Shown: positions 27,269 through 44,380, counted from the first letter of the stretch. The stretch is DNA of 64,000 nt from Thermoleophilia bacterium (GCA_027493445.1 JAOSKU010000001.1:1878822-1942821), one strand, 5' to 3'. Notes: generated by a model from the sequence alone, not told the origin. Program-made: numbers and translations.

Positions 27269-27383
27269 CCCAACCCCCTCGCTTTATGCCAGTTTGCAGG
27301 GTAAACACTACCAAAAAGGGGCGCAAAAAGATAGGAAGTTGAGGCAATCGGAGGGCTAGGCGGGGGACTTTTTCAGCAGCCTG

Positions 27384-27557
27384 TTAGGCAGTCTTCCTCC
27401 CCCGAGCGGGCTTGGGAGGGAAGGAGACAAGGCGCTCAGGGTGCTGCTGCTCATGTTTCCGCAGATCGGCTGCCATGGCACGCAGATCGTAGCCAAACTG
27501 CTTGGCGTATTCCTGGCGAAGACGTCGCGTTTCTTCAACGATTGGATCGGCCTGCAT
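27384..27557 (-). CDS. small (57 aa) conserved-looking protein immediately downstream of the PIN gene, a candidate antitoxin/partner
   Basis: MQADPIVEETRRLRQEYAKQFGYDLRAMAADLRKHEQQ.... The start codon abuts the stop of the PIN gene. Family not recognised with certainty. Confidence 0.4.
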   Translation of the reverse strand: MQADPIVEETRRLRQEYAKQFGYDLRAMAADLRKHEQQHPERLVSFPPKPARGRKTA

Positions 27558-27559
27558 GG

Positions 27560-28045
27560 TTAGCCCTCCATGAGTTCCTCGGGTGTGCAGATCACAGGGC
27601 AGGCATAGCCTTCCTCTTCCACCAGCGTTTCGATCCGATGGCGGAGCAAGGCGTTCGCAAGATGCTTGTGGTTCCACGTCAGAAGATAGTCGATGCCGTT
27701 GACGGCGGCTACGGCGATGTGAAGGGCATCGGCCCCGGACTCTCGCGGGATCAACCCACTTGACACGAGGTATTCAGCGAGGGAAACGGCGGGATCGCTG
27801 ACCGCCAGGATGCCCATTCCCTGAACCACCGCGAGGCGCCCACGAGAGGCGTCCGAGTCACCTCGGCCCGCCTCTTGCTCCACGAGCTCAGAGACAACCA
27901 ATTCAAAGCGACAGGATCGCTCATCCCACCATTGACGGGTCAGCTCCTGATGGGCAGCTACGACCACGTCACGACTGGGGCGACTCGTCAGGTAGCTGAT
28001 AACACTGGTCTCGATGTACACCCGCTGCTTCATCGCCAAGAGCAT
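27560..28045 (-). CDS. PIN-domain nuclease (VapC-like toxin family)
   Basis: RVYIETSVISYL N-terminus (first acidic residue), GADALHIAVAAVNGIDYLLTWNHKHLAN C-terminal PIN motifs. Confidence 0.6.
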   Translation of the reverse strand: MLLAMKQRVYIETSVISYLTSRPSRDVVVAAHQELTRQWWDERSCRFELVVSELVEQEAGRGDSDASRGRLAVVQGMGILAVSDPAVSLAEYLVSSGLIPRESGADALHIAVAAVNGIDYLLTWNHKHLANALLRHRIETLVEEEGYACPVICTPEELMEG

Positions 28046-28793
28046 ATCAGATGCCGATTCGTGCTCAGTTTCGGCCGGTCCGGTGACAGGCTCAGCCGGC
28101 CGAAGTCGTTCGAACGATCTCCCGTTCGTGGGCCAGGCTATGCGCGCGTCGGCAACGCGGGCATCTCAGGCTTCTGAGTCCTTCCCCTTGCGCTTGATCA
28201 GGCCGGAAATGTCGAGTTAAGAGCGGCGACCACCCGCTCGGATACAATCCACATCTCTTCTTGGTCCAGGCGAACGGCCCGCCGGAGGAGGCTTCCTTGC
28301 GCACCGGGGCGACGCTCTCCCCGCAGGAGCCGGCCATACCAGCCAGGGCGCGCTCGATGGGTGTCGGCAACGGAATTGATGGGCGCCACGGTTCAAGTTG
28401 GACGAGAATATGGCCGCACGTGCGGCAGCGGGTGTCGCCGACCTACGATCGTCCTCTCCCCCAACTCCGCAGGCACCACATGACCGCGCGAGCGATGCAC
28501 CTACGGGCGTGCCGCCCGTTCGAGCATGTTCCGAGGCAAGATACGGCTTTGGTTGCATGGCGCCCAGGGAACCGGCCATGCGATCTTGACATCGCGGGAA
28601 TACGCGGTGCTTACAGGAAGACCGCAGCCATGTGGAAGGCCACCACTGGAGGAAGGTCGTTCGCCGGCGGATGTCGCAGCATGCCCGAGACGAACTCCGG
28701 CGGCGCCGAATTCCAGTACACCTTCTGGGAGAAGCGGTCGCAAGCCCGCAACAAATCGTTGCGGTACATTGGCATCTATGTCATATTACTGCT

Positions 28794-29435
28794 ATGAAGT
28801 ACGACGAGCTTCTTGAGATCCTCGGTGATGCACCCGTCTTTGATTCGTCTCTGTTGCGCGCGGGCGACGTCGACCCCGCCGGCGTGGCGAGCCAGCTCTC
28901 GCGCTGGGTCTCAACCGGAAGGCTGCTGCAGCTGCGCCGGCGCGTCTACGCCGTGCCGGCGGCCCGTCGTCGCCGGGCGCCTTATGCGTTCGAGACGGCG
29001 AACCTGCTCGTGCGCCCGTCCTACGTGAGTCTGGAGGCCGCCCTCAGCTTCCACGGGATGATCCCTGAGGCCGTGTTCACCACGACCAGCATCACAAGCG
29101 CACGGCCGGCACTCTATCGCACCCCCCTCGGCGATTTCGACTACCGCCACGTCTCGGAGGCTCTCTTCTGGGGCTACCAGAACACCGAGGTCGCCCCCGG
29201 GGTGAGCGCGCTGGTGGCCCGTCCCGAAAAAGCGCTGCTCGATCTGGTGTACCTGCGACCTCGCGGTGACGACCCCGCGTTCCTGCACGAACTGCGCCTC
29301 GAACGGCTGGAGCGACTGGACACGGCCGCTCTCGAAGGCATGGCGCAGCGTACCGGAAGACCCAAGCTGGCGCGGGCTGCGTGCCGGATCGCCGGGATCG
29401 CCGCCCGATACGCTGAAGAATACGAGACGCTGTGA
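28794..29435 (+). CDS. abiEi: AbiEi-family antitoxin/transcriptional regulator (type IV TA)
   Basis: MKYDELLEILGDAPVFDSSLLRAGDVDPAGVASQLSRWVSTGRLLQLRRRVYAV is the AbiEi_4 N-terminal domain. Confidence 0.75.
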   Translation: MKYDELLEILGDAPVFDSSLLRAGDVDPAGVASQLSRWVSTGRLLQLRRRVYAVPAARRRRAPYAFETANLLVRPSYVSLEAALSFHGMIPEAVFTTTSITSARPALYRTPLGDFDYRHVSEALFWGYQNTEVAPGVSALVARPEKALLDLVYLRPRGDDPAFLHELRLERLERLDTAALEGMAQRTGRPKLARAACRIAGIAARYAEEYETL

Positions 29436-30241
29436 AGGAACATGCCATCGGCATCGTCAGACGAACGGATATGGCCGGCGGCCTCAACCTCCTGCGCGAG
29501 TACGTGCAGTCCCGCATACTGGGCGTGATGCAGGAGGCCGGGGCGATGATACCTCTCGCCTTCATGGGAGGCACGGCCCTGAGGTTCATCTACCGGATTC
29601 CCCGTTACTCCGAGGACCTGGATTTCACAGTGGAGCACGCCACCGAGGGATACAGGCTGCGAACCCTGGCTTCGCGCATCGAACGCCGCCTACAGCGCGA
29701 GGGCTACACGGTACGCGTGCGAATCAGCGACTCCCGCGCGGTTGCCATGGCGATGGTGGGGTTCGTGGGGTTGCCTGCCGAAGCAGGTCTGTCCCCTCAC
29801 GCCAATCAGGTCCTGTGGGTCAAAATCGAAGTGGACACCACCCCGCCGGCGGGTGCCGGCCTGGCCGTGAGCGTGGTCGACCGATTCGGGCTGCTGCGGC
29901 TCCAACATCATGACCTGCCCTCGCTGTTCGCAGGCAAGGTGGCCGCCGTCCTGGCGAGGAGCTACACGAAAGGGCGGGACCTCTACGATCTGATGTGGTA
30001 TCTCACGCGTGGGGAGGGAGTCGAGCCCAACTTCGTGCTGCTCGCCAATGCGTTGCGGCAGACCGCTCCGGGCATGGTCAAGGCGGTCGAGGCAGATTGG
30101 CGAGGTGCCGTCCGAAGGAGGCTCGAGCATGTGGATTGGCAGGACGCGAGACGTGATGTCGCGCCCTTCCTCGAGCAGGGACGAGACGTGGAGCTCATCT
30201 CGGCTGAGACGTTCGCGGCCCTGTTGAGAGGCGCCGAGTAA
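29432..30241 (+). CDS. abiEii: AbiEii/AbiGii-family nucleotidyltransferase toxin (DUF1814)
   Basis: LAFMGGTALRFIYRIPRYSEDLDFTVE nucleotidyltransferase motif. 4-bp overlap with abiEi. Confidence 0.75.
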   Translation: MKEHAIGIVRRTDMAGGLNLLREYVQSRILGVMQEAGAMIPLAFMGGTALRFIYRIPRYSEDLDFTVEHATEGYRLRTLASRIERRLQREGYTVRVRISDSRAVAMAMVGFVGLPAEAGLSPHANQVLWVKIEVDTTPPAGAGLAVSVVDRFGLLRLQHHDLPSLFAGKVAAVLARSYTKGRDLYDLMWYLTRGEGVEPNFVLLANALRQTAPGMVKAVEADWRGAVRRRLEHVDWQDARRDVAPFLEQGRDVELISAETFAALLRGAE

Positions 30242-30467
30242 TCGGCGGCCCGGTCGCTCCGGGCGCCCCTTGCCACCTTCGGCTCCTGCATGCGGCGCCC
30301 GATGTCGCGCGAGACAGCGTGCACAGCGGCGGCCCTGGTCTTGAATGATGTGTTTGACAGCGGATTATGCATGGCTGTATCGTGAATTATGCAGGGTCGC
30401 TTCCGTGGCACGATCGCATTCCGGAGCTGCCCCCGCCACTGAATGTCAGAGAAGGGCTGCGATTTCC

Positions 30468-31589
30468 ATGGTCGCGCGGTTCACTGCGGTGCCCAAGGTG
30501 GATGAGGTAATCCTGCATCCGTTGGAGATACCGCTCGCGCATCCCTTTTCCACCTCCCAAGCGACCCAGCAGACCGGCCGCTTCATCCTGGTGGAAGTCC
30601 GGGCGGAGGGGCTGGTTGGTTTCGGGGAGGCTGACCCGCGCCCCCACATTACCGGGGAGACGGTCGCAAGCGCAATGGCCGTACTGGAACGCGAATTCAT
30701 CCCCGCCGCTCGTTCGCGCTCGGTTGCCGACCTGGTCGGTCTCCACGCCTCCATGGCGCCGGTCAAGCTGAACTTCTGTGCCAAAGCCGCTCTCGATATC
30801 GCCTTCCACGACCTGCTGGGCCAGGCTCTCGGCCTACCCGTGCGCGATCTCCTGGGAGGGTCGGCGCGGGAGCGGGTGGTGCTGAACGCATGGTCCGGAT
30901 TGTCGCAGGACCCGGAAGCCACCGCCGAGGAGCTTCTCTCCAAGGTAGCCGCGGGGTATGACCGGGCGGTCAAGGTCAAGGTGGGCAACAACCAGACGGC
31001 AGAGACTCAGCTGCTCGAACGGCTCGTTTCCCGGCTGCCGCCGAGTGTCGCCCTGATCGTCGATGCGAATCAAGCCTGGTCATACCCTGAAGCCCGGCAG
31101 CGGCTCTCGCGGCTCGCCGAGCTCGGAGTCACAATCGCCGAGCAACCAGTCGGGTGGCGAGACGTGGCCGGGCTCCGCCGGCTCAACCAGTGTCTGCCTC
31201 TGGCCGTCATGGCCGACGAGAGCGCCTGGACCGCGGCCGATGCGTTTCGCCTCTTGGCCGACGAGGCCGCCGGCATGCTCAACCTGAAACTTCTCAAATG
31301 CGGCGGGCTGCAGCCGGCGCGTGAGTTCCTATCTGTGGCGCAGGCCGCCGGTGCGCCCTGCATGGTCGGGAGCACCGTGCAGACGGCCGTGAGCGCGGCT
31401 GCCCAGGCCCATCTGGCCGCGGCCTCTCCCATTGTGACTCTGGCCGACATCGTTACCCCCAGCGACTTCCTGGTTGAGGACGTGGCAAGCGGCTTCGAAG
31501 TACGCGCCGGGGCGGCCGTGATCGGCGACAAGCCTGGCCTGGGAATCGAGATCGACAGACGGCTCCTTGAAAAGTACCGATTGGAGTAG
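30468..31589 (+). CDS. enolase-superfamily enzyme, mandelate racemase / muconate lactonizing (dipeptide epimerase or N-succinyl-amino-acid racemase-like)
   Basis: KVKVG, IVDANQAW, MADES and LKLLKCGGL metal/acid-base motif positions of the MR/MLE subgroup. The ORF is open from 30345. Confidence 0.7.
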   Translation: MVARFTAVPKVDEVILHPLEIPLAHPFSTSQATQQTGRFILVEVRAEGLVGFGEADPRPHITGETVASAMAVLEREFIPAARSRSVADLVGLHASMAPVKLNFCAKAALDIAFHDLLGQALGLPVRDLLGGSARERVVLNAWSGLSQDPEATAEELLSKVAAGYDRAVKVKVGNNQTAETQLLERLVSRLPPSVALIVDANQAWSYPEARQRLSRLAELGVTIAEQPVGWRDVAGLRRLNQCLPLAVMADESAWTAADAFRLLADEAAGMLNLKLLKCGGLQPAREFLSVAQAAGAPCMVGSTVQTAVSAAAQAHLAAASPIVTLADIVTPSDFLVEDVASGFEVRAGAAVIGDKPGLGIEIDRRLLEKYRLE

Positions 31590-32760
31590 GCGTGGAGATC
31601 TCGATCAAGGAGAGAGTCTGCGCGATGGTCGACGAGCTCCGGGGGAGCTGTTGGAGGTCTCCCGCCTGATCCATGAGAACCCCGAAACCCGCTTCGAGGA
31701 GCACAGGGCGGTGGAGTGGCTTTGCGCTGTGCTGGAATCGCGTGGTCACGCCGTCGAACGAGGAGTTGCTGGCCTGCCAACCGCTTTCCGAAGCTCGATG
31801 GAGCTGGCCGGTCAGGGACGAGTGGTGGCGTTTGTGGCCGAGTACGACGGTCTTCCCGTCATCGGTCACGGGTGTGGTCACAATCTCATCGCCGGAGCCT
31901 CGCTTGGCGCGTTTCTCGCCTTGGAGGCGGTGGGGGCGCACCTCCCCGGAACAGTCTCGCTACTGGGGACCCCCGGGGAGGAAGGCGGAGGGGGCAAGGT
32001 GACGATGCTCTCCCGAGGCGCCTTTGCCGGCTGCGATGCGGCACTCATGTTCCATCCCGCGCCGTTCACGGTCATGATCCCGGCCACCCTGACCACGGCC
32101 GACGTCACCGTTTCGTTTCGCGGCCGAGCGTCGCATGCAGCGGCGAATCCTGAGAATGGGATCAACGCGCTGGACGGTGTCATCAACACCTTCAACAGCA
32201 TGAACGCACTGCGCGGCTACATGCGCAGGGACGCGCGGGTCCATGGGATCATCACTCGCGGGGGCGAGAGCCAGAACGTCATACCTGAGGCGGCGGAAGC
32301 GGTCTTCAGCGTGCGGGCGAAGGACGTTGCGTATCGAAGCGCGCTGGTTCAGGAGCTCAAGCGGTGTGCTGAGGGTGCTGCGTTGGCCTCAGGAGCACGA
32401 GTCACGGTTACCAACCGAGGGGTTCGCAATTCGCTCACGACGAATCGCCGTCTGATCTCGTTCTTCACGGCGAATCTCGTCTCGCTGGGAGAGAGAACGA
32501 GGGCCGGCCAGCCGCGCCCTTTCTCCACCGATATGGGCGACGTCAGTCACTCTGTGCCCTCTATTCACCCGACGATCTCGATCTGCGAGGAAGGCGTGTC
32601 CCTGCACTCCACCGAGTTCGCACGTGCGGCCGGGTCGGAGCGAGGCCGCGAGGTGATGCTAACAGCAGCCAAGGCTCTGGCCATGACTGCCGTCGATCTG
32701 CTCACAGCCGTGCAGGAACCGCATTCCCGCCGGCGCGCCGCGGCCGGCGAGAGGAGGTGA
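31567..32760 (+). CDS. M20-family amidohydrolase (N-acyl-L-amino acid amidohydrolase / hippurate hydrolase-like)
   Basis: LIHENPETRFEE...GHGCGHNLIAGASLGA...G.PGEEGGGGK are the M20D metal-binding motifs. Confidence 0.75.
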   Translation: MKSTDWSRRGDLDQGESLRDGRRAPGELLEVSRLIHENPETRFEEHRAVEWLCAVLESRGHAVERGVAGLPTAFRSSMELAGQGRVVAFVAEYDGLPVIGHGCGHNLIAGASLGAFLALEAVGAHLPGTVSLLGTPGEEGGGGKVTMLSRGAFAGCDAALMFHPAPFTVMIPATLTTADVTVSFRGRASHAAANPENGINALDGVINTFNSMNALRGYMRRDARVHGIITRGGESQNVIPEAAEAVFSVRAKDVAYRSALVQELKRCAEGAALASGARVTVTNRGVRNSLTTNRRLISFFTANLVSLGERTRAGQPRPFSTDMGDVSHSVPSIHPTISICEEGVSLHSTEFARAAGSERGREVMLTAAKALAMTAVDLLTAVQEPHSRRRAAAGERR

Positions 32761-32819
32761 TGTCGGTCGGGTGGTGACACGTACCGGGCCTGTTGACGGC
32801 GTCTAGATAGGAGCTGTGC

Positions 32820-34709
32820 ATGAAGGGCGGTTACTGCGGCAAGATACTTAGAGTCGATCTGGATGCAGAGAACTTCACTGACGAACCGCTGCCCGAGGAT
32901 CCGGTTCTGCGCAAGTTCGTCGGAGGGTGGGGACTCGGTCTGTATTTCTATAGCAGGGAGTACAAGCCAGGCTTCGGATTCAAGGACCCGCGCACCCCTC
33001 TCATCTTCACGACCGGTCCGCTTACGGGCACCAGGGTTCCCTCGGCTACGAACACGACGGCCGTCACTTTGAACTCGGAGACCGGCTACACCACAGCCCG
33101 ATCACACTCGCACGGAGCTTTCGGACAGAAGCTGAAGGCGGCGGGCTATGACGGCATCATCATCACCGGGCGGGCGAAGAAGCCAGTGTATCTTTGGATC
33201 GACGACAGCGGTCCGAGGCTCTACGACGCGGCCGGCGTCTGGGGCCTTGACACGCATGATACAGAGGACGCCGTCAAGGCCGAGCGAGGTATCGAGGAGG
33301 GGCGCAAAGCAAGCGTTGCCGCCATCGGCCCGGCTGGCGAGAACGTCTGCCACGGAGCTCTGATCCAGAACGACAAGCATCACTCTTTCTCCCATGCCGG
33401 CACCGGAGCGGTCATGGGCGCCAAGAACCTCAAGGCAATCGGAACGGCGGGGACCGCCAAGGTGCCCGTACATGACCCGGCAGCGCTCAAGGAGTCGGCC
33501 AAGCTCTGGCGGGAGAGCCTGCTCGGCTGCGAGATGGGGCAGTTCTGGGTAGCCGGTGGCAAGGATGCAGCAGGCCGGCACTCGGTGTGGGAGTACGATA
33601 AGAGGGAGAGCCTCATCTCGGCCCAGAACTTCCAGCGGGTAAGCCCACCCGAGTGGCTTGATGACATCGAAGACATCGCCGAGGTGCGCAAGAAAGGTTG
33701 CCCGGGGTGTCCGCTCGGCTGTTCCTATGAGGTCGAGATCCACAAAGGGCCTTTTGCGGGCCAGGTCTTCACTCCTTCCGGCGGCGGCGAGAACATGGAG
33801 GGGAGCGCCTCGATCATCGGCGTCTACGACACCGCGCGGGTCTACATGCTCACCGACACCAATGATCGGATGGGGTTCGAAGCCGGAGCCGCGGGGACCA
33901 CACTGGCGCTTGCCATTGAGGCATACAAGAAAGGGCTACTGACCAGGGAGGACACTGATGGTCTCGAACTCCGTTGGGGCGACGCGGACCTAGGCGCGGC
34001 CCTGATCCGCAAGATGGCCCACCGCGAAGGTGCGTTTGGGGAGATTTTGGCACTTGGAGCACCCGGACTTGCCCGGCGCATCGGCGGTGAGGCCCTCGAC
34101 ATGGTGGCCCATGTGAAGGGCGGCAGCATCAACCACCACGACTGGCGGGCCTCCTGGGGCATCTTCTTTGGTCAGATCGTCGGCGGCGCCTCCGGCTGGC
34201 CGGCCCCGGGCGTCACGAACTTCACCACGGAGCCTTCGATTGGCTACGATACCTTCCAGGAGCCGCTGACCCCGGAGGGCAAGCCCCTCGCCTCCCGCAT
34301 GACGGGCATGCTCAAGTTCTATAACGACTCCGTCGGCACTTGCTGGAACTCCCTCTGGGGAGTGCCGCGCAGCCTGCAGTCAACCACGGAGTGCATCGCG
34401 GCGGCCACCGGTTGGGACTTCACCCCAGAGGAGGCGCTCACGTTGGGAGAACGGCTGATGAACCTGGAACGGGTGTGCAACCTGCGAAACGGCTTCACAA
34501 AGACGGACGACTTCGACATCGGCCCGCGCCTTCTGCAGGCCCCCACTGAGGGACGGGCGAAGGGCCGCTCAATCAAGCCCTTCTTGCCTGGGATGATCGA
34601 CGAATACTATGAGCTCATGGGCTGGGATGTGAAGACGGGCCGGCCTTACCGGGCAACCCTCGAGCGTCTCGGGTTGGAGGAGTACGCTCTGTTCGTCTGG
34701 ACTGACTGA
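32820..34709 (+). CDS. aldehyde:ferredoxin oxidoreductase family (tungsto/molybdopterin enzyme)
   Basis: N-terminal MKGGYCGKILRVDLDAENFTDEPL is the AOR signature. 629 aa. Confidence 0.8.
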   Translation: MKGGYCGKILRVDLDAENFTDEPLPEDPVLRKFVGGWGLGLYFYSREYKPGFGFKDPRTPLIFTTGPLTGTRVPSATNTTAVTLNSETGYTTARSHSHGAFGQKLKAAGYDGIIITGRAKKPVYLWIDDSGPRLYDAAGVWGLDTHDTEDAVKAERGIEEGRKASVAAIGPAGENVCHGALIQNDKHHSFSHAGTGAVMGAKNLKAIGTAGTAKVPVHDPAALKESAKLWRESLLGCEMGQFWVAGGKDAAGRHSVWEYDKRESLISAQNFQRVSPPEWLDDIEDIAEVRKKGCPGCPLGCSYEVEIHKGPFAGQVFTPSGGGENMEGSASIIGVYDTARVYMLTDTNDRMGFEAGAAGTTLALAIEAYKKGLLTREDTDGLELRWGDADLGAALIRKMAHREGAFGEILALGAPGLARRIGGEALDMVAHVKGGSINHHDWRASWGIFFGQIVGGASGWPAPGVTNFTTEPSIGYDTFQEPLTPEGKPLASRMTGMLKFYNDSVGTCWNSLWGVPRSLQSTTECIAAATGWDFTPEEALTLGERLMNLERVCNLRNGFTKTDDFDIGPRLLQAPTEGRAKGRSIKPFLPGMIDEYYELMGWDVKTGRPYRATLERLGLEEYALFVWTD

Positions 34710-34723
34710 AGGAGAGGGATGAC

Positions 34724-36034
34724 ATGAAGCGGCGTATCATTTGGGCCCTGGCGGCGGCCCTCCTGCTTACCATTGGTCTACTCTCTGGTTCCTGCGCCGG
34801 CGAGGAAGCCACAACGACAACATCCGCCGAGGAGCCTGCCACTACAGAGTCCACGGCTCCGAGCACCACGGCGGCCGCCCTTGACCGGCCGGTCAAGATT
34901 GGCGGTACTCTTCCACTGTCCGGGCCCGCGGCGGGGGACGGGCAGCGCTTCCTGGACGGGCGCAAGCTGGCGGTCAAGAAGATCAACGCGGCCGGAGGGG
35001 TGCTCGGCCAGCAAATCGAGCTGGTGGTAGTCGACGACGGCTTCGAGCCGGCCAAAGTGCCCTCTCTGTACGAGAACCTGGTCCGGCAGGACAAGCTGGA
35101 CGTGCTGCTGTCGTCCTACGGAGCGCCCATGACAATGCCGGCGATGGCGGTCGCCGACAAGTATGACAAGCTTGTGCTGAGCGGCTACTCGTCCTCGACC
35201 GGGCTCATGGAGCAGTATGGGGGCAAGCGCTTCTTCACCGTAGCGGCCCAGCCCAAGGACAAGATGTACGTCAACTGGTTCTACCGGGGCCTGACCGACT
35301 TCCTTGCGGATTTCGATTCCTGGAATACGAAAGCCGACGTCCAGAAGCCCACCAAGATAGCCGTGCTCAACGAGAATCAGCTCTGGGGGATTGAGCAGCA
35401 TGACTTGTGGAAACCGCATGCCGAGCAACAAGGCTGGGAGATCGTCGTCGACGAGTTCGTGGAGATGAACCAGATGGAGTTCTCCTCCCTGATCTCGAAG
35501 ATCAAGTCGGCGAACCCCGACGTGATCATGACAGAGTTCTTCTACTTCCGTTCGGTGCCCTTCGTGAAGCAGCTGAAGGAGCAAGGCGTCAAGGCTGACT
35601 TCGTCGCCTGCAGCGAGGCAGGGACGACTGCCGATTGGGCCGACGAGACCAAAGGCGCCGGCGCCGTCGGCAACAACGTCATCACTTTCGACTACCTTCC
35701 CGCCGCCTACACCGGCGGCGGTAGTGAGGAGTTTCGCGCCGACTTCAAGGCCGAGTACGGCCGCGACCCTGGCTTTCTCGAGGCAGCCGGCTACGCTGAG
35801 GTCCAGGTGCTGGCGCAGGCCATCGAGACCGCGGGCAGCATCGAGACGGACGCGCTGCGGGACGCCCTGCTCAGCGGAAGCTTCGAGACTGTCTACACCT
35901 CGGCGAAGTTCGACAGCATGGGCCTGAACGCCGAGTTCAATCCGGTCGTAGGGCAATGGATCGACGGTCGGCTTGAGAGTGTCTACCCGAAGGACGCAGC
36001 CACCGCGGAGCTGGTCTATCCCTTTGCCCAGTGA
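34724..36034 (+). CDS. ABC transporter substrate-binding protein, branched-chain amino acid (LivK/LivJ) type, lipoprotein
   Basis: N-terminal lipobox LLSGSCAG, a Thr/Ala-rich linker, and periplasmic binding protein type 1 features. Confidence 0.7.
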   Translation: MKRRIIWALAAALLLTIGLLSGSCAGEEATTTTSAEEPATTESTAPSTTAAALDRPVKIGGTLPLSGPAAGDGQRFLDGRKLAVKKINAAGGVLGQQIELVVVDDGFEPAKVPSLYENLVRQDKLDVLLSSYGAPMTMPAMAVADKYDKLVLSGYSSSTGLMEQYGGKRFFTVAAQPKDKMYVNWFYRGLTDFLADFDSWNTKADVQKPTKIAVLNENQLWGIEQHDLWKPHAEQQGWEIVVDEFVEMNQMEFSSLISKIKSANPDVIMTEFFYFRSVPFVKQLKEQGVKADFVACSEAGTTADWADETKGAGAVGNNVITFDYLPAAYTGGGSEEFRADFKAEYGRDPGFLEAAGYAEVQVLAQAIETAGSIETDALRDALLSGSFETVYTSAKFDSMGLNAEFNPVVGQWIDGRLESVYPKDAATAELVYPFAQ

Positions 36035-36133
36035 ATCTCCATCGAGTGCTCTTCGGTGGACAAGCGCCGGCCTTCGCCGGCGCTTGTCCACCCGGCTTGC
36101 CGTCTGCCGCGGCTGTGACTGGACCAGACGAGG

Positions 36134-37023
36134 ATGCACGTGAGTTCGTTTGCCGAAGCCGCTTTTCAAGTGGTGGTCTTCGGCCTGCTGGCCGGGAGCA
36201 TTTATAGCCTTCTCGGACTCGGCCTCACGCTCATCATGGGTGTGGGCAAGATCCTTAACATCAGCCATGGGGACCTGGGTATTCTGGGCGCCTATGCGGC
36301 CTACGCGGCCTTCATCGGCTGGGGTGTCGATCCCCTGCTCATGCTGGTGGTTGTCATCCCCTTGCTCGGCCTTCTGGGCGGGGGATCCAGCGTTTTGTGA
36401 TCAGCCCAGCCATCACCGACCCCAAGTTCCGGACCACCGCCTCGGTCATGATCACCTACGGACTGGCCCTGGTCATCGCTAATGGGCTCACGGTGACGGC
36501 CTCGCCCAGCTACCGTTTTCTCAGCCTGAGCTACGCCTATTCCGGCGTCGAGGTGCTCGGCACCACCATCAATGTCCCGCGCCTGCTGGTGCTGGTCACT
36601 GCGTTCGTTGTCATGGCGCTGCTCGTGGCTCTGCTTCGCACCCGGCTCGGAAAGGCGATTCTGGCATCGGCGCAAGACCAGACCCTGGCCATGTTGGTCG
36701 GGGTGAACAACCGGCGGGTCGCAGCCCTTACGTTCGCCATCTCCTCTGGGCTCGCCGCAGTAGCCGGCGTCCTGTATATCCTCAACAACCCCCTCTATCC
36801 CGCCGTCGGCCTCGGTCTGACTATCAAAGGCTTGACCGTCATGGTGCTTGGCGGCATCGGCAATGTCCCCGGGGCGATGGTCGCCGGGCTCATTCTCGGT
36901 CTGGCCGAGTCCTTCACGTCGTTCTACATCGGCGACCTCTACCGGGACGTCATCGCATACTTGGTGCTCATCGTCGTGCTCCTCGTTCGTCCGAGCGGCA
37001 TCTTCCGGAGTCTGGAGGGATGA
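36134..37023 (+). CDS. livH: branched-chain amino acid ABC permease (LivH type), frame broken at G run 36380-36384
   Basis: 36134-36400 and 36397-37023 join as ...LLGLLGGGIQRFVISPAITD... if one G is added. Confidence 0.7.
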
Positions 37024-37051
37024 CCGACCAGGTGCCGGAGCGGAGAGCTTT

Positions 37052-38014
37052 GTGATCGGGCGCTACGGCATTGCGGGGGCATACGGCCTGGGTATGGCTG
37101 GAGCGGCTCTCGTCCTGGCGTTGCCCATCTTCGCACCGGGGATGGTCGGCTATGCGATCGGGCTCTTCATGTACGCCACCCTGGCAATGGGCTGGAACCT
37201 GCAGGGCGGCTACCTGGGCGATCTTTCCTTTGGCCACGTCGCGTTTTTCGGCCTGGGCGGGTATGGGGTTGCCCTCCTCATCGAGAACCACATCCTCGAC
37301 TGGGGCCCAATCAACGTGATTGTTGGTGCTCTCGGAGCGGCAGCTTTTGCAGCGGTGATCGGCGTACCGTTCCTGAGACTCAAGGGCTTCTACTTCGCCA
37401 TCGGAACCCTCGGCCTGTCGGGACTCCTTGCCCTGGTGTTCAAGAACCTGCTCGAGGATGTCACCCATGGTGCCGCGGGCATCATGGTGCCTGCGCCTCA
37501 GCCCTACCATATCGAGACCTTCTACTACTCCATACTAGGGATTGCTGTTCTCACCCTGGTCGGGTCCGCGATCCTCATACGTTCGCGAGTTGGCCTTGCT
37601 TTCCGCGCCGTGCGTGACAACCCGGAGGCCGCCTATTCACTGGGGATTCACGTGACGTTCTACCGTGTGCTCGGCTTCGCCGTGAGCGCTTTCGTCGTAG
37701 GGTTGGTGGGGGGCTTCTACGCCTACTACACCAACTACCTGAATCCGGACGGCATGTTCGCCGCCACCGTCAGTTTTGAGATGCTGGTCATGGTGTTCCT
37801 GGGTGGAGCCGGAACTCTGGGCGGCCCCCTTCTCGGTGCCGTTGTCTTCTATGTCCTCCAGGAAGTGGGACGGCAATACATCGGGCAGGGCTTCTACATC
37901 CTGCCGGCCTTGATTCTCATCATCGTGTTCATGTTCCTGCCCAGTGGACTCATGGGAGTGCCCCTGGGCCGCCGCCCGCGTTTTGGATTCTCCCGGAAGG
38001 TAGGCCGCAGGTGA
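37052..38014 (+). CDS. livM: branched-chain amino acid ABC permease (LivM type)
   Basis: Polytopic. The start is uncertain. The ORF is open from 36848 and overlaps livH. Confidence 0.65.
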   Translation: MIGRYGIAGAYGLGMAGAALVLALPIFAPGMVGYAIGLFMYATLAMGWNLQGGYLGDLSFGHVAFFGLGGYGVALLIENHILDWGPINVIVGALGAAAFAAVIGVPFLRLKGFYFAIGTLGLSGLLALVFKNLLEDVTHGAAGIMVPAPQPYHIETFYYSILGIAVLTLVGSAILIRSRVGLAFRAVRDNPEAAYSLGIHVTFYRVLGFAVSAFVVGLVGGFYAYYTNYLNPDGMFAATVSFEMLVMVFLGGAGTLGGPLLGAVVFYVLQEVGRQYIGQGFYILPALILIIVFMFLPSGLMGVPLGRRPRFGFSRKVGRR

Positions 38015-38751
38015 GCCTGCTCGAAGCACGTAGTATCGGAAAATCATTCGGGGGCGTGGTAGCGCTGGACGGCGTTGACATGGAGCTCCACGAGGGAGAG
38101 ATACTTGGGCTTATCGGACCGAACGGTTCGGGCAAGACAACGTTGTTCAATGTGCTGAGCGGCTTCTACAAGCCGGACCGCGGCTCTGTCCGCTACCGCG
38201 GTCGAGACATCACCGGGTGGCGCCCGGACCGGATATGCCGGGTCGGCATTGGCAGGACCTTCCAGCTGATCCACCCTTTCGAAACCATGAGCGTTCTGGA
38301 GAACGTGCTCGTCGGAGCGACCTTCGGCAAGCGCGGCCGGGAGCATCGCGGCTGCCGACAGCGCGCCTCGGAGGTTCTTGCTGAGGTGGGGTTGGCGACC
38401 AAAGCGCAGGGGGCCGTCGGCAGTCTCACCATGGCCGAGCTTCGGCACCTGGAGCTGGCCCGCGCGCTTGCCACGGCTCCTCGGGTGCTCTTCTTGGACG
38501 AGGCCATGGCCGGTCTGACCAACACCGAAACCGAGGATCTGATGCGGGAGGTGCGGGCTATCAGGGATCGGGGGGTGACGGTGTTCATCATAGAGCACGT
38601 GATGAAGGCCATCATGGGACTCTCGAACCGAGTAATGGTGCTGGAGTCGGGGAGGAAAATCGCCGAGGGCGCCCCCGAGGACGTGGTGAGCGACCGGCGG
38701 GTGATAGAGGCGTACCTGGGCAAGGACGGAGCGACACATGCTGCGGGTTGA
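38011..38751 (+). CDS. livG: ABC transporter ATP-binding protein (LivG type)
   Basis: Walker A GPNGSGKTT, signature LSGGQ-like and Walker B LFLDE. Confidence 0.8.
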   Translation: MSLLEARSIGKSFGGVVALDGVDMELHEGEILGLIGPNGSGKTTLFNVLSGFYKPDRGSVRYRGRDITGWRPDRICRVGIGRTFQLIHPFETMSVLENVLVGATFGKRGREHRGCRQRASEVLAEVGLATKAQGAVGSLTMAELRHLELARALATAPRVLFLDEAMAGLTNTETEDLMREVRAIRDRGVTVFIIEHVMKAIMGLSNRVMVLESGRKIAEGAPEDVVSDRRVIEAYLGKDGATHAAG

Positions 38752-39442
38752 GAACCTGTGCGCTGGCTACGGGCCAACTCGTGTGCTCTGGGACGTGGGA
38801 CTCGCCGTGGAGGAGCACGAGACGGTCATCATTGCGGGTTCCAACGGCGCCGGCAAGAGCACCCTTCTCAAGTGCATAGCGGGTGTGATGGAGCCCCAGG
38901 CAGGCGCGATCACCTTCAAGGAGCAGCGAATCGAGGGCCGCCCCGCGTACGACTTGGTGGCCCGGGGGCTCAGCTTGATACCGGAGGGGGGCCGAGTATT
39001 CCCCCACATGAGCGTAGCGGACAATCTCCAGATGGGAGCGCACCTGCTCAGAGATCGGGCTGCTCGGCAGGCGGCTCTGGACTCTGTCTACCATCTCTTC
39101 GCGGATCTGTACGAGAAGCGAAATCAGTATGCGCGCACCTTGAGCGGAGGGCAAAGGCAGATGCTGGCGATAGGCATAGGTCTCATGAGCCGACCAGCGC
39201 TTCTGATGGTGGACGAACCTTCCTCGGGTCTTTCTCCGCTCCTGGTGGGCTACTTGATGGACATGCTTACGAAGGTCACGGATTCGGGCCTGAGCGTGTT
39301 GCTTGTCGAGCAGAACATCCGCTCCGCCCTCGAGATAGCCGACCGGGGATACGTCATGGAGAACGGACGGATCATCATGGAGGGGACCAGTTCCGCGTTG
39401 AAGGAAAATGATTTCGTGCGCGAGGCCTACCTGGGCTTGTAG
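38738..39442 (+). CDS. livF: ABC transporter ATP-binding protein (LivF type)
   Basis: GSNGAGKST, LSGGQRQMLAIG and LLMVDEPSSGL. Confidence 0.8.
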   Translation: MLRVENLCAGYGPTRVLWDVGLAVEEHETVIIAGSNGAGKSTLLKCIAGVMEPQAGAITFKEQRIEGRPAYDLVARGLSLIPEGGRVFPHMSVADNLQMGAHLLRDRAARQAALDSVYHLFADLYEKRNQYARTLSGGQRQMLAIGIGLMSRPALLMVDEPSSGLSPLLVGYLMDMLTKVTDSGLSVLLVEQNIRSALEIADRGYVMENGRIIMEGTSSALKENDFVREAYLGL

Positions 39443-39448
39443 GAGCCG

Positions 39449-39640
39449 GTGCGAGGCAGGCGCCTCGTCGCTCCGGGGTTGCTCTGGTACGAGATGAGCG
39501 AGGTGCCCCAACTCGCTCTCGACAGTGGACTCACCGCTTGTGACGCCGCGTATCTTTCGCTGGCGCAGTCACTCCGGGCGCCCCTTGCCACCTTCGACCG
39601 GCGGCTGGGGGACGTCGCGACGCAGGCGACGGGCACAGCA
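39449..39640 (+). pseudogene. possible VapC (PIN) C-terminal remnant
   Basis: ...LTACDAAYLSLAQSLRAPLATFDRRL matches the PIN C-terminal consensus (sYDAaYlaLAr.lgaPLvTlDrrL). Nothing PIN-like lies upstream. Confidence 0.3.
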
Positions 39641-39646
39641 GGAGGA

Positions 39647-40039
39647 CTAGACCTCCGCCGCGCGCTTGATCTTCCCGATCGAAAGGAACATCGCCCGGTA
39701 TCTGGTGCGAGAGGTGGGTCCGCCGCTGACTGTGTCGAGGGCGACAAAGCCGAGCTGTTCGTAGAACGACACGCGATTGGCCAGAGCAGCCACGAGTATC
39801 CCCAGGCAGCCCACCCGGCGCCGCTGCTCCAGCGGCGCCCGCAGCATCATGTCCCGCACAAGGGCGCGCCCGAGCCCCAGGCCCTGGTGGCGGAGGTCGA
39901 CCGCCAAGCGAGCCAAGCGAACAACCGGCAGCGGACACTGTGTCCGTGCCGGCGGCCTTTGCTGCAGCCCCAAACGGCCGGAGGGCGCGTGACCTTCCCG
40001 CAGCTGGCCCTGCGGCTGCCAGATCGTGTCCTCCCGCAA
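39647..40039 (-). CDS. GNAT-family N-acetyltransferase
   Basis: LARLAVDLRHQGLGLGRALVRDMM...FYEQLGFVALD is the GNAT motif A/B region. The start is uncertain. Confidence 0.55.
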   Translation of the reverse strand: MREDTIWQPQGQLREGHAPSGRLGLQQRPPARTQCPLPVVRLARLAVDLRHQGLGLGRALVRDMMLRAPLEQRRRVGCLGILVAALANRVSFYEQLGFVALDTVSGGPTSRTRYRAMFLSIGKIKRAAEV

Positions 40040-40077: not shown

Positions 40078-41265
40078 ATGATCGAACGCAGACTAGCTTC
40101 CGAACTCGACCGGCGCCTGGAGCAGGTGCCCGCCGTGGCCTTGCTCGGACCGCGGCAGGCCGGCAAGACGACGCTGGCCCTGGCCGTGGGCCAGGCGCAT
40201 GGGGCGCTGTACATCGACCTCGAGTCGGAACGCGATCGGGCCAAGCTCAGCGAGCCTGAGCTCTATCTGGCCGATCACTTCGGGCGGCTGGTGATCCTCG
40301 ATGAAATCCATCGCGCGCCCGACCTGTTCCCATCGCTGCGTGGTCTGATCGACCGGGCGCGCCGCGAAGGCCATCGCAACGGTCTCTATCTGCTGCTCGG
40401 ATCAGCCTCGTTGGATCTGCTCAAGCAATCGGGCGAGACTCTGGCCGGACGTATCAGCTACCTCGGATTGAGCCCCTTCTCCGTGCTTGAGATCCGCGGG
40501 CAGCCGATCGAGAGGCCCATCGAGCGGCTCTGGCTGCGTGGCGGCTTTCCGGAGAGCTTCCTGGCCGCGGATGACGCCCAAAGCCTGCGCTGGCGGGAAG
40601 ACTTCATCCGCACCTACCTGGAGCGTGACATCCCCCAGTTCGGACCGCGGATCGCCGCCGAGACCCTGCGCCGCTTCTGGACTATGCTCGCCCATCATCA
40701 AGGCGGCCTGCTCAACGTGGCGCAATTGGCGCGCAACCTGGGCGTGGACGGCAAGACCGCGGCCCGCTATATCGACCTGCTCTCCGACCTGCTGCTGGTG
40801 CGGCGACTGCCGGCCTGGCACACGAACCTGGGCAAGCGGCTCGTCAAATCGCCCAAGGTCTACGTGCGCGACAGCGGTCTTCTGCATGCACTGCTAGCCA
40901 TCGGCGACAAGGACACCTTGCTGAGCCATCCCGTGGTGGGCGCAAGCTGGGAAGGCTTCGTCATCGAGAACCTGCTCGCCTCGGCACCGCGGGGCGTCCA
41001 GGGCTACTTCTACCGCACCAGCGGCGGCGCCGAGATCGACCTGCTGCTGGCCTGGCCCGACGGTCGCCTGTGGGCCGTGGAGGTCAAGCGCAGCCTCACG
41101 CCCCGACCGGAGCGCGGCTTCCACGCCGCCTGCGCCGACCTTGGGCCCGAGCGCCGGTTCGTGGTGTATCCAGGGCGGGAAACCTACCCCATCGCCGCCG
41201 AAACCACGGCCGTGCCCTTGGAGGAACTCGCCCGGCGTCTGGGGCAGCAGGTAAATCACCCTTGA
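40078..41265 (+). CDS. AAA-family ATPase with DUF4143 domain (COG1373-type)
   Basis: Walker A GPRQAGKTT, Walker B LVILDEIH, and a C-terminal DUF4143-like region. Confidence 0.65.
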   Translation: MIERRLASELDRRLEQVPAVALLGPRQAGKTTLALAVGQAHGALYIDLESERDRAKLSEPELYLADHFGRLVILDEIHRAPDLFPSLRGLIDRARREGHRNGLYLLLGSASLDLLKQSGETLAGRISYLGLSPFSVLEIRGQPIERPIERLWLRGGFPESFLAADDAQSLRWREDFIRTYLERDIPQFGPRIAAETLRRFWTMLAHHQGGLLNVAQLARNLGVDGKTAARYIDLLSDLLLVRRLPAWHTNLGKRLVKSPKVYVRDSGLLHALLAIGDKDTLLSHPVVGASWEGFVIENLLASAPRGVQGYFYRTSGGAEIDLLLAWPDGRLWAVEVKRSLTPRPERGFHAACADLGPERRFVVYPGRETYPIAAETTAVPLEELARRLGQQVNHP

Positions 41266-41384
41266 CAGCGAGTGTTGACCGGCTTCACCTTTGCTGTTAG
41301 CATATAAGTGCAAGCCGCATATAGTTTGTAGGCGGTGCATTCACTTGTTTCCCCGGATCTTCTGGCGAGCAGGAGGTGAGAAAC

Positions 41385-41797
41385 ATGGAAGGCTGCGGTA
41401 GACGAGGGCCCCGAGGTCCTGGCGGCGGCCGTTACCGCCGGGCGGTGCTCGAGCCCGCCATCCTGCTCTCCCTGCTCTCTGAGGAGCGGCACGGCTACGA
41501 CCTGATCGAGCCGGTCGAAGGGCTGGTAGCGGGGAGGTGTGCGTTGACCCCGGCAGCGTGTATCGGCTGCTGCGGGGCATGGAAGACGAAGGGCTCGTAT
41601 CCTCCGCTTGGGAGATCACCGCCCGCGGGCCCAATCGACGCACCTATACGATCACGGGGCAAGGTCGGGAAGCGCTGGCGGCGGCCGCCGAGGAGCTTCG
41701 GCGGCGAGCGCGGGCTTTAGCTGCGCTCGCCCAGGCGGCTGAGTTGGGCCTCGCGGGTGAGAGGCCGGCCGAACGAGTGAGCGCGAGAGAGGAGTAG
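41385..41797 (+). CDS. PadR-family transcriptional regulator, frame broken at G run 41531-41534
   Basis: ...AILLSLLSEERHGYDLIEPVEGLVAG then, after adding one G, EVCVDPGSVYRLLRGMEDEGLVSSAWEITARGPNRRTYTITGQGREAL. SD AGGAGG 10 nt before the ATG. Confidence 0.65.
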
Positions 41798-41799
41798 TC

Positions 41800-41979
41800 A
41801 TGCCTCGCCACGATGGAACAGGACCGGAAGGTAAGGGCCCGGGCACGGGGCGCATGCTCGGCAACTGCGTCGTGTACGCCGCCGACTTCTTCCGCAACCT
41901 TCGGCGCAGGCCGCTGAGACCCCTGCGCCGGCTGCGGGAACCGCCGGCAGACTCCAACAGGCAACGGAACCGGGAATGA
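41800..41979 (+). CDS. DUF5320-like small protein (59 aa)
   Basis: MPRHDGTGPEGKGPGTGRMLGNC resembles the DUF5320 N-terminus MPRGDGTGPMGMGPMTGRG. It is coupled to PadR with a 2-nt gap and overlaps the GntR start (ATGA). Too short to appear in the ORF track. Confidence 0.45.
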   Translation: MPRHDGTGPEGKGPGTGRMLGNCVVYAADFFRNLRRRPLRPLRRLREPPADSNRQRNRE

Positions 41980-42719
41980 GCGCGCGGCTGCTTCAGGAGC
42001 ACGAGCAGCGATGCGGCCTCGAGCGTCCCCGTCTTGCCGACCTGCTGGCGGGCCGGATAGCGGAGACCGTCAGAAAAGAGGGTCTGCAAGACGGCGGGCG
42101 TCTCGGTTTTGAGCATGAGCTTCTGGAGCGCTACGACACCAGCCGGGCGGTTCTGCGAGAGGCCTTGCGCATGCTGGAGCGGGACGGAGTGGTGGCCACG
42201 AAACCGGGGCCGCGCGGCGGCGTCTTCGGTAGTACGCCCGACAGCGCCGGCGTCGTCCGCCTACTGGAGCTCTACAGCGACTTCCATGGTGTTCCCTCCG
42301 TCCAGCGCGAGCAGGCCCTGGTCGAGCTCGAGGTAGTGGCAGCTCAGCTGGCCGCCGCGCGCAGAACCAACGCGGACTTGGCCGATCTCAATCGGATCCA
42401 TAGGGCGTCGCTCCGGAGTGGCCGCACTGGGCACGACGCGGGCAGCACGCGGGCCTATCTCGATTTCCACGGAATCATCCTCCGTGCTGCGCACAACTCG
42501 ATCGTGCACCTCCTGCGTAACGCTCTGCTGGATCTCAGCCCCACGCCTCTCTGGGTCCGACCCAAGGATGAAGGCGCAAAGGCCGTGCCCTCCGCGCACC
42601 AGGAGATCCTGGAAGCGATCGCCGAGAGCGACCCTTCTCGCACCGGCTCCTGCATGCGGCGCCACCTCGAGGGGCGTCTGCTCCCTGGCCCTCGACCGGC
42701 CCGGGAAGATCGCGGCTGA
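41976..42719 (+). CDS. GntR-family (FadR/FCD subfamily) transcriptional regulator
   Basis: A GntR wHTH-like region near the N-terminus and a C-terminal FCD-like helical domain. Confidence 0.6.
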   Translation: MSARLLQEHEQRCGLERPRLADLLAGRIAETVRKEGLQDGGRLGFEHELLERYDTSRAVLREALRMLERDGVVATKPGPRGGVFGSTPDSAGVVRLLELYSDFHGVPSVQREQALVELEVVAAQLAAARRTNADLADLNRIHRASLRSGRTGHDAGSTRAYLDFHGIILRAAHNSIVHLLRNALLDLSPTPLWVRPKDEGAKAVPSAHQEILEAIAESDPSRTGSCMRRHLEGRLLPGPRPAREDRG

Positions 42720-43277
42720 ACGCGCGACCGGAGACAGCTGCGGGCAGAGGCGGGCCCAGGGGGCCGCGGGCCGCTTCACCTGGCTCATCAGGAGACGCAA
42801 TGCCGGTTTCCATGACACCACAACACGGCGCGGTCAGCTGTCTGCGTCCTGCTTCCGGAGAGCGACGGCTACTCCAAAGTCCCGCCACCGGCCGGCCGCC
42901 AATTCCCGATGCTGGACGGTCATGGTTCGAGCAGGGCTTCCACGATAGCGACGATCCGGTCGCGGATCACGGGATCGTCCACCCCGCGCGAACGGTTCCC
43001 CTGCAACGGCGGATGTTGATCAGGGAATCGAACTCGATGCGGTCCGGGCCGGGGCCATGATCTCCAGATCCGTGGTCGAAATGGGGTTGTCGATGATCTT
43101 CACCGCCCGAATTTAGCAGGCCTGGGCATCTGTGCGTCGAGGCCACGCTGTCGAGTGCGGCCTGGCCGCCACCGGGAGGCGACGACTCAGCCTTGGAGCA
43201 TATGCCACCATTGACCATAATGAATGCCAAATGGCGACAGTTGGAGAGCCGGCAGCAGTGGGTAGAGGAGCGTAATC

Positions 43278-43733
43278 ATGCCTACGGCCACAGTTGTTCC
43301 CCGATCCCTTCTTTCGGTTGAAGCCCTGCTCGGTGGCCAGGGCGTGTTGCAGGCCAAGCCCCGCTCCTCGATGGATTGGGTGGCGGTCATACGCCGGGGC
43401 ATCCCAGCACCGGCGGTGCAGTCGCTCACGAAGTCACTCCGCATGACCCAGGCCGAACTGGCGACAGCTCTGGGCATCTCCGAGCGCACGTTGGCCCGCC
43501 GGAAGAGGGAGGACACATTCAACAGCGAGGAGTCGGCCAAGCTGGTACGGCTGGCGCGGGTCGTCGAGCGGGCCCAAGAGGTGTTCGAAGACTTCGATGC
43601 GGCCCTGGACTGGGTGAAATCGCCGAATGCGGCCCTGGCCGGTGCGACTCCGCTCAGCCTGCTCGACATCGATATGGGCGCGGAAAGCGTCCTGGACACG
43701 CTGGGACGCATCGAACACGGCGTCTTTGGCTGA
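43278..43733 (+). CDS. ParS/Xre/MbcA-type antitoxin (DUF2384) for RES toxin
   Basis: HTH MTQAELATALGISERTLARRKRE and C-terminal ...ALDWVKSPNAALAGATPLSLLD, the toxin-binding domain. Confidence 0.7.
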   Translation: MPTATVVPRSLLSVEALLGGQGVLQAKPRSSMDWVAVIRRGIPAPAVQSLTKSLRMTQAELATALGISERTLARRKREDTFNSEESAKLVRLARVVERAQEVFEDFDAALDWVKSPNAALAGATPLSLLDIDMGAESVLDTLGRIEHGVFG

Positions 43734-43743
43734 CCGAGGGTCC

Positions 43744-44204: not shown

Positions 44205-44310
44205 GCGCAGGGCAAAGATGGCCCCCTGGAACGGGCTGGCGGAATCGCTGCGATCTCGACCGGCCCCCGGGGTTCCCTTCCAGTCGCCATGGCGGGCCCA
44301 CGAGACATAT

Positions 44311-44338
44311 TTGGCAGCAAAGCTTTCAGTGCTAGCAT
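44311..44338 (+). promoter_or_regulatory. sigma70-like promoter candidate. TTGGCA, 16-nt spacer, TAGCAT
   Basis: It lies about 40 nt upstream of the AGGAGG RBS of the RHH antitoxin gene. Confidence 0.3.
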
Positions 44339-44380
44339 GATGGTGGCCCCAGCCATCCGGAGGAGGCGCACCTGGCCGTC

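Follow-up and report, generated by a model that had tools for sequence, protein, structure and literature searches.

In a stretch of 64,000 nucleotides (nt) from a Thermoleophilia metagenome-assembled genome (MAG), here called the window, eight closely spaced, co-directional genes on the plus strand (positions 30468-39442) encode an enolase-superfamily enzyme, an M20D amidohydrolase, an oxidoreductase of the AOR family and a Liv-type ABC importer. We propose that these genes serve the import and degradation of an amino-acid-like compound with a blocked (N-acylated or otherwise N-substituted) alpha-amino group, and give this reading a probability slightly below one half (about 0.45). It builds on the gene content, on the family placement and intact catalytic residues of the encoded proteins, and on the conservation of all eight genes together.

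When relatives of the enolase-family and AOR-family proteins (the latter called AOR in the following) were traced in public assemblies, the same gene set was found in eight or more additional, independent contexts from metagenomes or MAGs, in shuffled order and with different flanks. The order enolase-family gene, M20 gene, AOR gene, Liv transporter was shared by the window and the metagenomic locus L001. In L013, a Bacillota MAG, and in L106 the enolase-family gene was followed by AOR, transporter and M20 genes, with an RpiR regulator gene next in L013. The order was RpiR, bicupin, AOR, enolase-family, M20, transporter in L101 and RpiR, AOR, enolase-family, insertion, M20, transporter in L102. 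AOR, enolase-family and M20 genes followed one another in L011 and, with a binding protein gene after them, in L010; L008 showed an NCS1 permease gene followed by enolase-family, AOR and M20 genes, with RpiR alongside, and L009 a transporter followed by the enolase-family gene. The apparent 359-residue gene between the enolase-family and M20 genes of L102 (5449-6528) was not protein-like and matched no family, and was treated as an insertion of ~1.1 kb. The bicupin gene of L101, seen in a single context and with weak cupin matches, was not used.

AOR orthologues at least 70% identical to the window protein occurred in nine contexts (window, L001, L008, L010, L011, L013, L101, L102, and L106), and all nine contained both the enolase-family gene and an M20D orthologue. 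The AOR gene adjoined the enolase-family gene in seven of them. A Liv-type binding protein or transporter was likewise present in seven of the nine; in L008 the NCS1 permease takes its place, and L011 is not long enough to reveal one. AORs with 51-62% identity to the window protein were found without enolase-family or M20 partners. Identity to the window proteins was 70-77% (AOR), 44-54% (enolase-family protein), 48-61% (M20 protein) and 59-73% (binding protein), the loci ranged from 0.35 to 0.65 in GC content, and their hosts include Thermoleophilia and Bacillota. Because the set recurs under gene-order shuffling in unrelated anaerobes, the eight genes constitute a functional unit, which agrees with an earlier sequence-only reading of the window that had joined the enolase-family, M20, AOR and importer genes into one. 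A scan of metagenome contigs with the AOR clade alignment and two short patterns returned only generic AORs with 28-34% identity and no module copies, and a literature search found no paper linking a racemase, an amidohydrolase and an AOR-family enzyme.

Four of the loci also carry genes for regulators of the RpiR family with HTH_6 and SIS domains (L008, 7182-8039, minus strand; L013, 9910-10755; L101, 748-1641; L102, 365-1246). These regulators flank all four non-Thermoleophilia contexts with visible flanks and comprise two orthologous pairs (51% and 45% identity); neither the window nor L001 contains one. A further branch (L004 to L007) has the M20 gene followed by the enolase-family gene, then genes for a FAD-dependent oxidoreductase and a flavin reductase; genes of the old-yellow-enzyme type lie upstream, and there is no AOR gene. 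In L004 (1-17043), as in L005 to L007, the enolase-family protein is 44% identical to that of the window; the surroundings in L004 include two old-yellow-enzyme-type reductases, an aldo-keto reductase, a glyoxalase-fold protein and a UPF0261/PEP-hydrolase pair. The flavin genes of this branch may provide another way to carry out redox chemistry on the same class of substrate.

The genes that the sequence-only reading had listed do exist, at or near where it had placed them, as judged by matches to Pfam and TIGR01891. The first gene (30468-31589; MR_MLE_N/C) encodes an enolase-superfamily enzyme of the MLE subgroup with 373 amino acids, and its start agrees with a cluster representative of the same length (P0001). 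It is followed by the M20D amidohydrolase gene (31592-32760), the AOR gene (32820-34709, 629 amino acids), the gene for the substrate-binding lipoprotein of a HAAT (LivK/J-type) ABC importer (34724-36034), a split LivH-type permease gene (36134-37023), a LivM-type permease gene (37052-38014), and genes for the LivG-type ATPase (38011-38751) and the LivF-type ATPase (38738-39442), the latter being the final gene of the conserved block. The spacers between these genes measure, in order, 2, 59, 14, 99, and 28 nt, and at the last two junctions the genes overlap by 4 and 14 nt; such tight spacing is what would be expected of a compact operon of ~9 kb. A consensus scan revealed a candidate sigma-70-like promoter upstream of the first gene (TTGACA-18-TATCGT, 30354-30383, plus strand), a pattern match at 10 of 12 positions. 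Rfam and tRNA scans of the window gave no matches.

Two of the eight genes are frameshifted in the window. As reference we used L001, which is 96% identical over a shared alignment of 10.8 kb. Across this length only two coding indels distinguish the window from L001, each the loss of one G in a run of six. The first, near position 31640, shifts the frame of the M20 gene after ~16 codons. The alignment with L001 places the authentic M20 start at GTG 31592, 2 nt past the TAG stop codon of the enolase-family gene. The translational overlap of the two genes claimed earlier, 23 nt when counted from TTG 31567 (longest open reading frame [ORF], 31567-32760), is thus an artifact, since it arises from the G lost near 31640. 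The second deletion, near 36379, again shortens six G to five and splits LivH into two ORFs (36134-36400 and 36397-37023) that match positions 3-67 and 92-269 of the BPD_transp_2 profile, whereas L001 encodes an intact LivH of 296 amino acids. The GTG start of LivM at 37052 was derived from the L001 orthologue of 320 amino acids. Errors in homopolymer length are typical of long-read assemblies. The pattern suggests that both one-G losses are such errors in the 4.6-Mb MAG contig, real decay being the alternative, and further genes of this assembly may be split likewise.

All five components of a HAAT (LivKHMGF) importer are present, i.e., the binding protein, two permeases and two ATPases. The earlier description of a complete importer holds in this respect; as LivH differs from its L001 counterpart by a 1-nt deletion, the importer can be called complete only if both deletions are sequencing errors. 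The binding protein (Peripla_BP_6, E-value 2e-54) has an N-terminal signal with a Cys and a Thr/Glu-rich linker, and its matches in the PDB (best E-value 1e-21) include amino-acid, aromatic-acid and urea binders and do not discriminate between ligand classes. Both permeases match BPD_transp_2. The LivG-type ATPase was identified by ABC_tran and BCA_ABC_TP_C and scored 213 bits with the LivG model; its LivF-type partner was identified by ABC_tran and scored 217 bits with the LivF model.

The enolase-family protein has the complete catalytic set of the MLE subgroup. In a 12-sequence clade alignment, K169 and K171 (the KxK motif of strand 2), the metal ligands D199, E225, and D250, and K274 of strand 6 are invariant, and in the window protein these residues align with the catalytic residues of YkfB. 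K277, three positions after the strand-6 lysine, is also invariant in the clade and corresponds to R266 of AmyNSAR and K271 of BsDE, a positively charged second-shell residue that is required for racemase or epimerase turnover (bioRxiv 10.1101/2022.03.03.481873). Against solved structures the clade profile scored highest with YkfB (364 bits), BC0371 (2P88, 357 bits) and 3JVA (345 bits), whereas classical N-succinyl-amino-acid racemases/o-succinylbenzoate synthases (NSAR/OSBS) reached 160-193 bits. An AlphaFold2 model (pLDDT 93) was ranked by Foldseek closest to 2P88 (TM score 0.92, root mean square deviation 1.8 Å) and then to dipeptide epimerases, with classical NSAR/OSBS structures below position 11. 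The protein is therefore not a member of the NSAR/OSBS family, to which the sequence-only reading had likened it, given 160-193 bits versus 345-364 bits for the dipeptide epimerases and BC0371. That reading had also named a place among the muconate cycloisomerases or dipeptide epimerases, combined with unrelated neighbours, as an outcome that would speak against it; of these two features only the first applies, as the protein indeed falls within the dipeptide-epimerase clade or next to it, whereas its neighbours cannot be called unrelated. A role as muconate cycloisomerase was ranked low, as these enzymes scored 210-268 bits with the clade profile compared to 345-364 bits for the epimerases, and the mucon_cyclo model gave 194 bits against a cut-off of 335 bits.

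In dipeptide epimerases, a DxD motif at the end of strand 8 (D321/D323 in YkfB, 1TKK) binds the alpha-ammonium group of the dipeptide. The corresponding column reads D327-I-V329 in the window protein, D-I-(L/A/S/V) across the clade and E-L-T in BC0371, whereas D-x-D is kept in 1TKK, 3JVA, 3Q45, and 3R0K. Arg24 of YkfB is replaced by Ala in the window protein. The loss of the ammonium-binding motif suggests an N-blocked substrate, and we favour the interpretation that the protein is a racemase or epimerase for such a compound. Judged by its sequence, it represents an orphan clade beside the dipeptide epimerases and the N-succinyl-amino-acid racemase of the BC0371 type. The clade is extremely rare: of 1.84 billion representatives clustered at 50% identity, one exceeds 300 bits. 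Its nearest outgroup, P0012 (36% identity), adjoins a Dpp/Opp peptide transporter; no such transporter occurs in the module copies, all of which have HAAT or NCS1 systems.

The best structural and a near-top profile match, BC0371, is the divergent N-succinyl-Arg/Lys racemase of Bacillus cereus (2P88/2P8B/2P8C). It shares the Lys/Lys and Asp/Glu/Asp set with the module enzyme, and both stand among the dipeptide epimerases without having the DxD motif. BC0371 itself clusters with Ala-Glu epimerases and lacks residues typical of them, its preferred substrate being N-succinyl-Arg (PMC2948282). The two proteins are only ~30% identical, however, and no AOR or Liv importer is known to accompany BC0371. 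Since the loop V-A-D-D-H of BC0371 is replaced by D-P-R-P-H, its Arg/Lys specificity is unlikely to carry over. The L-Ala-D/L-Glu and other dipeptide epimerases (YkfB 1TKK, 3JVA, 3RIT) belong to the same subgroup, include the top profile score, and have the two-base residues including the K271 equivalent; they are paired with dipeptidases, so that the logic of an epimerase followed by a peptidase matches the module. In contrast to them, the module enzyme has neither the second Asp of DxD nor Arg24, and it is accompanied by HAAT or NCS1 rather than Dpp/Opp transporters and by a co-conserved AOR.

The second enzyme belongs to the M20D subfamily (TIGR01891, 188 bits versus a cut-off of 153.75), although its frame is broken near codon 17 in the window. 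It matches HmrA of Staphylococcus aureus (3RAM) and human PM20D2 (7YH4), a Xaa-Arg/beta-alanyl-lysine dipeptidase, over the full length with E-values of ~1e-59. The metal-ligand motifs HGCGHN, PGEEGGGGK, and MFHPAP and the C-terminal His align with those of HmrA and PM20D2. An allantoin/ureide pathway, for which NCS1, M20, bicupin and glyoxylate were considered, was rejected, as the M20 protein reached only ~18-25 bits with allantoate amidohydrolase models.

The third enzyme is a pyranopterin (W or Mo) [4Fe-4S] oxidoreductase of the single-subunit type. The AFOR_N and AFOR_C domains were recognized with E-values of 2e-60 and 7e-74, the CxxCxxxC motif and the distal Cys are kept, and the protein is a member of the AOR/WOR family in the broad sense. 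It is 100% identical to a Thermoleophilia MAG protein at NCBI and matches 1AOR with an E-value of 1e-80; the best identity to a PDB entry is ~33%. Like the AOR of Pyrococcus furiosus (PfAOR) and other Class I (single-subunit, ferredoxin-linked) tungsten enzymes, it has the two-domain fold and four [4Fe-4S] cysteines, with no partner-subunit genes nearby. It differs from PfAOR, to which it is ~33% identical, in its second shell. The second-shell residues conserved in aldehyde-oxidizing AORs are Thr243, Glu313, Tyr427, and His448 (PMC12096430, PMC13328260). We compared these motifs in HMMER alignments with five structures and in a MAFFT alignment comprising 28 AOR-family sequences. GT243 of PfAOR corresponds to GR in the clade, AY427DPR to HHDWR, GGCH448IK to SGWPAPG, and PEYE313 to GGGENMEG, where the equivalence of the Glu is ambiguous. 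The equivalents of T243, Y427, and H448 therefore read R, H, and G/P, there is a 3-residue insertion at GWPAPG, and the protein falls outside AOR sensu stricto.

The AOR/WOR subfamily with 51-77% identity to the window protein, which also includes proteins of L014, L103, and L105, shares the motifs GGGE(N/A)(M/L)EG, (H/N/W/L)HDWR, and GWPAPG and lacks His448. It has thousands of metagenomic members, among them proteins from Chloroflexota, Bathyarchaeia, and Halalkaliarchaeum, and no characterized member was found in it. One member with 51% identity is encoded beside a thiamine pyrophosphate enzyme, a TRAP transporter and a Mo-hydroxylase, an arrangement that fits aldehyde oxidation.

From these data we infer the substrate class, the order of the steps and the AOR reaction of the proposed pathway. 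The compound would be taken up by the Liv-type ABC system, or by the NCS1 permease in the case of L008. The enolase-family enzyme would then abstract the proton next to the carboxylate and invert the centre through a 1,1-proton transfer involving two lysines, as BC0371 and the dipeptide epimerases do, and the M20D enzyme would cleave the amide of the L-form to yield the L-amino acid and an acid. The AOR-family W/Mo enzyme would contribute a ferredoxin-linked aldehyde/carboxylate step on the same pathway, most likely by producing the carboxylate from a form of the substrate that bears an aldehyde, alternatively by oxidizing an aldehyde derived from the product. We favour an order with AOR first, because the enolase-superfamily and M20D enzymes need a free carboxylate and the AOR/enolase-family pair is the most constantly adjacent one. 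The more specific proposal that the imported compound is itself the substrate of AOR, which would convert, for example, an N-acyl alpha-amino aldehyde or a different N-blocked amino-acid derivative with an aldehyde group to the carboxylate, to be epimerized or dehydrated by the enolase-family enzyme and cleaved by M20D, is tentative, and we consider it possible but rather doubtful.

Several observations weigh against the proposed breakdown of an N-blocked compound. Aldehyde oxidation by the module AOR is unproven because the canonical H448 and T243 are absent, and a transaminase or decarboxylase that would generate an aldehyde from an amino acid was found in no module context. The K277 equivalent also occurs in MLE-type cycloisomerases and is a necessary rather than a sufficient criterion; at this level of comparison the enolase-family enzyme may also be a lyase or cycloisomerase. 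The module M20 proteins form no specialized clade: they are among thousands of similar proteins, hundreds of non-module homologues are equally similar (49-55% identity), and the M20 protein tells little about specificity for this reason. The RpiR/SIS regulators in four contexts would be more usual in pathways for sugars or sugar acids, the L004-L007 branch combines the M20/enolase-family pair with flavin oxidoreductases in place of AOR, and two module genes, M20 and livH, are frameshifted in the window.

An alternative in which the enolase-family enzyme and M20 act as dipeptide epimerase and dipeptidase on dipeptides with D-residues, such as cell-wall peptides, would draw on the dipeptide epimerases among the top sequence and structure neighbours, on the position of the outgroup P0012 beside a Dpp/Opp transporter, and on the dipeptidase activity of PM20D2. 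The Liv importer and AOR would then serve general amino-acid fermentation, AOR detoxifying aldehydes derived from 2-oxoacids; PfAOR is thought to remove amino-acid-derived aldehydes (PMC13328260), and generic AORs occur near Liv ATPases elsewhere. However, the second Asp of DxD is missing throughout the clade, the transporter is HAAT or NCS1 and never Dpp/Opp, and a generic role leaves unexplained why AORs of the ≥70% clade are exclusively, and usually adjacently, paired with the enolase-family gene, so that we regard this alternative as unlikely. Still less probable, in our view, is a dehydratase or lyase acting on an N-acyl beta-hydroxy alpha-amino acid, for example an N-acetyl-hexosaminate formed by AOR from an amino-sugar aldehyde, with M20 subsequently deacylating the enamide to a 2-oxo acid, ammonia and the acid. 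This scheme would assign every enzyme a necessary role, the AOR-enolase adjacency fits consecutive steps, and the RpiR/SIS regulators with their two orthologous pairs are typical of sugar or sugar-acid catabolism. The MLE subgroup also contains dehydratases, and the OSBS and cis-3-hydroxy-L-proline dehydratase models matched with E-values of 1e-33 to 1e-36. Yet no context contains a sugar-type transporter, kinase or aldolase, the transporters are of amino-acid or NCS1 types, the closest characterized relatives are all 1,1-proton-transfer enzymes, and the scheme is derived purely from chemistry.

The sequence-only reading had compared the module to the D-to-L amino acid conversion of Geobacillus kaustophilus, in which a GNAT succinyltransferase, an NSAR/OSBS enzyme and an M20 L-desuccinylase cooperate (bioRxiv 10.1101/2022.03.03.481873). 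In such an irreversible route GNAT would succinylate free D-amino acids, the enolase-family enzyme would racemize the products and M20 would desuccinylate the L-form. The resemblance is that a racemase-like enolase-superfamily gene adjoins an M20-family hydrolase gene in both systems, and the closest solved structure is that of an N-succinyl-amino-acid racemase; the idea of a racemase acting together with an amidohydrolase is reasonable for this reason. The GNAT component is already contradicted, though: at 39647-40039 on the minus strand there is indeed a GNAT-like ORF, but it covers positions 29-83 of the 84 of the Pfam profile, the C-terminal half only. No N-terminal half was present in any frame, and a DUF4143 ATPase gene starts on the other strand at 40078. 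Homologues of this ORF have 161-164 amino acids and are encoded directly after DUF1778 antitoxin genes, more than 2,000 plasmid records contain such a homologue, and the fragment aligns with about residues 82-162 of these proteins. It is encoded opposite to the module genes and without a DUF1778 antitoxin, and cannot be assigned to the TacT/KacT type. The window and L001 are syntenic up to 39455, 13 nt past the LivF stop codon, so that the fragment lies outside the block common to both loci, and no GNAT was present in any other module copy or orthologous cluster. By these alignments the ORF is the remnant of a DUF1778-associated toxin gene outside the module. As, in addition, the enolase-family protein stands outside NSAR/OSBS, and importer and AOR, which the Geobacillus operon lacks, would be left without a role, a conversion of this type is very improbable. 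Next to no weight can be given to the view that the eight genes are chance neighbours without shared function in a mobile region rich in toxin-antitoxin systems. Insertion sequence (IS) elements and toxin-antitoxin modules do flank the block, and the two frameshifts would fit, but the recurrence of the set, with different orders and flanks, in eight or more other independent contexts has already refuted it, and chance juxtaposition of eight genes is excluded on this comparison.

At 39449-39640 on the plus strand, the final third of a PIN/VapC domain lies back to back with the GNAT remnant (~39647-39930, minus strand), both toxin remnants being located at the synteny break. The surroundings of the module (21473-30241 and 40078-44193) are mobile and rich in defence genes. 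The 5′ side contains genes for a reverse transcriptase (21473-22690), an ISAzo13-type transposase (22896-23906) and an IS5/DUF772 transposase (26099-27268) and, nearer to the module, a PIN protein (27560-28045) and an AbiEi/AbiEii pair (28632-30241). On the 3′ side, the DUF4143 AAA ATPase gene (40078-41265) is followed by genes for a GntR/FCD regulator (41976-42719) and an Xre/ParS-RES toxin-antitoxin pair (43278-44193). The GntR/FCD gene was rejected as a module regulator, as it lies past the synteny break, behind the toxin remnants and the DUF4143 ATPase.

In the rest of the window, positions 1-20000 contain a cell-envelope polysaccharide cluster with genes for a Wzy-like protein, GT4 glycosyltransferases, a flippase, a DegT aminotransferase and a protein of the NAD-dependent epimerase/dehydratase family (GDP-mannose 4,6-dehydratase-like). 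A surface-type protein of 934 amino acids with InlB B-repeat and Fn3-like domains is encoded at 44112-47398 (minus strand), where an overlapping ORF in an alternative frame has long exact internal repeats, indicating that the DNA is repetitive there. The region 48000-54000 has a GC content of 0.71-0.74, compared to about 0.60-0.67 over most other parts of the window, and holds genes for a second O-antigen-ligase-like protein (47985-50354), a trehalose phosphatase (50329-51306) and a GMC-type oxidoreductase (51149-53455). At 60463-62166 lies the gene for a PGA_cap protein that carries an SLH domain.

Pairs of a racemase and an amidohydrolase are known, but an AOR-family enzyme that is inherited together with such a pair is a rare and unreported combination. 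A physiological role has been defined for only 5 of 92 WOR clades (PMC13328260). Through the module, one uncharacterized WOR subfamily gains a constant set of partner enzymes and a binding protein of its own, each of them accessible to ligand screening, and the enolase-family clade would bring a new specificity to a textbook superfamily. If AOR indeed shares the substrate of its partners, the module would represent a new anaerobic route for N-blocked amino-acid derivatives. Should AOR act on the imported compound itself, this would be an undescribed W/Mo-dependent catabolic pathway and the first physiological role for a large, uncharacterized WOR subfamily.

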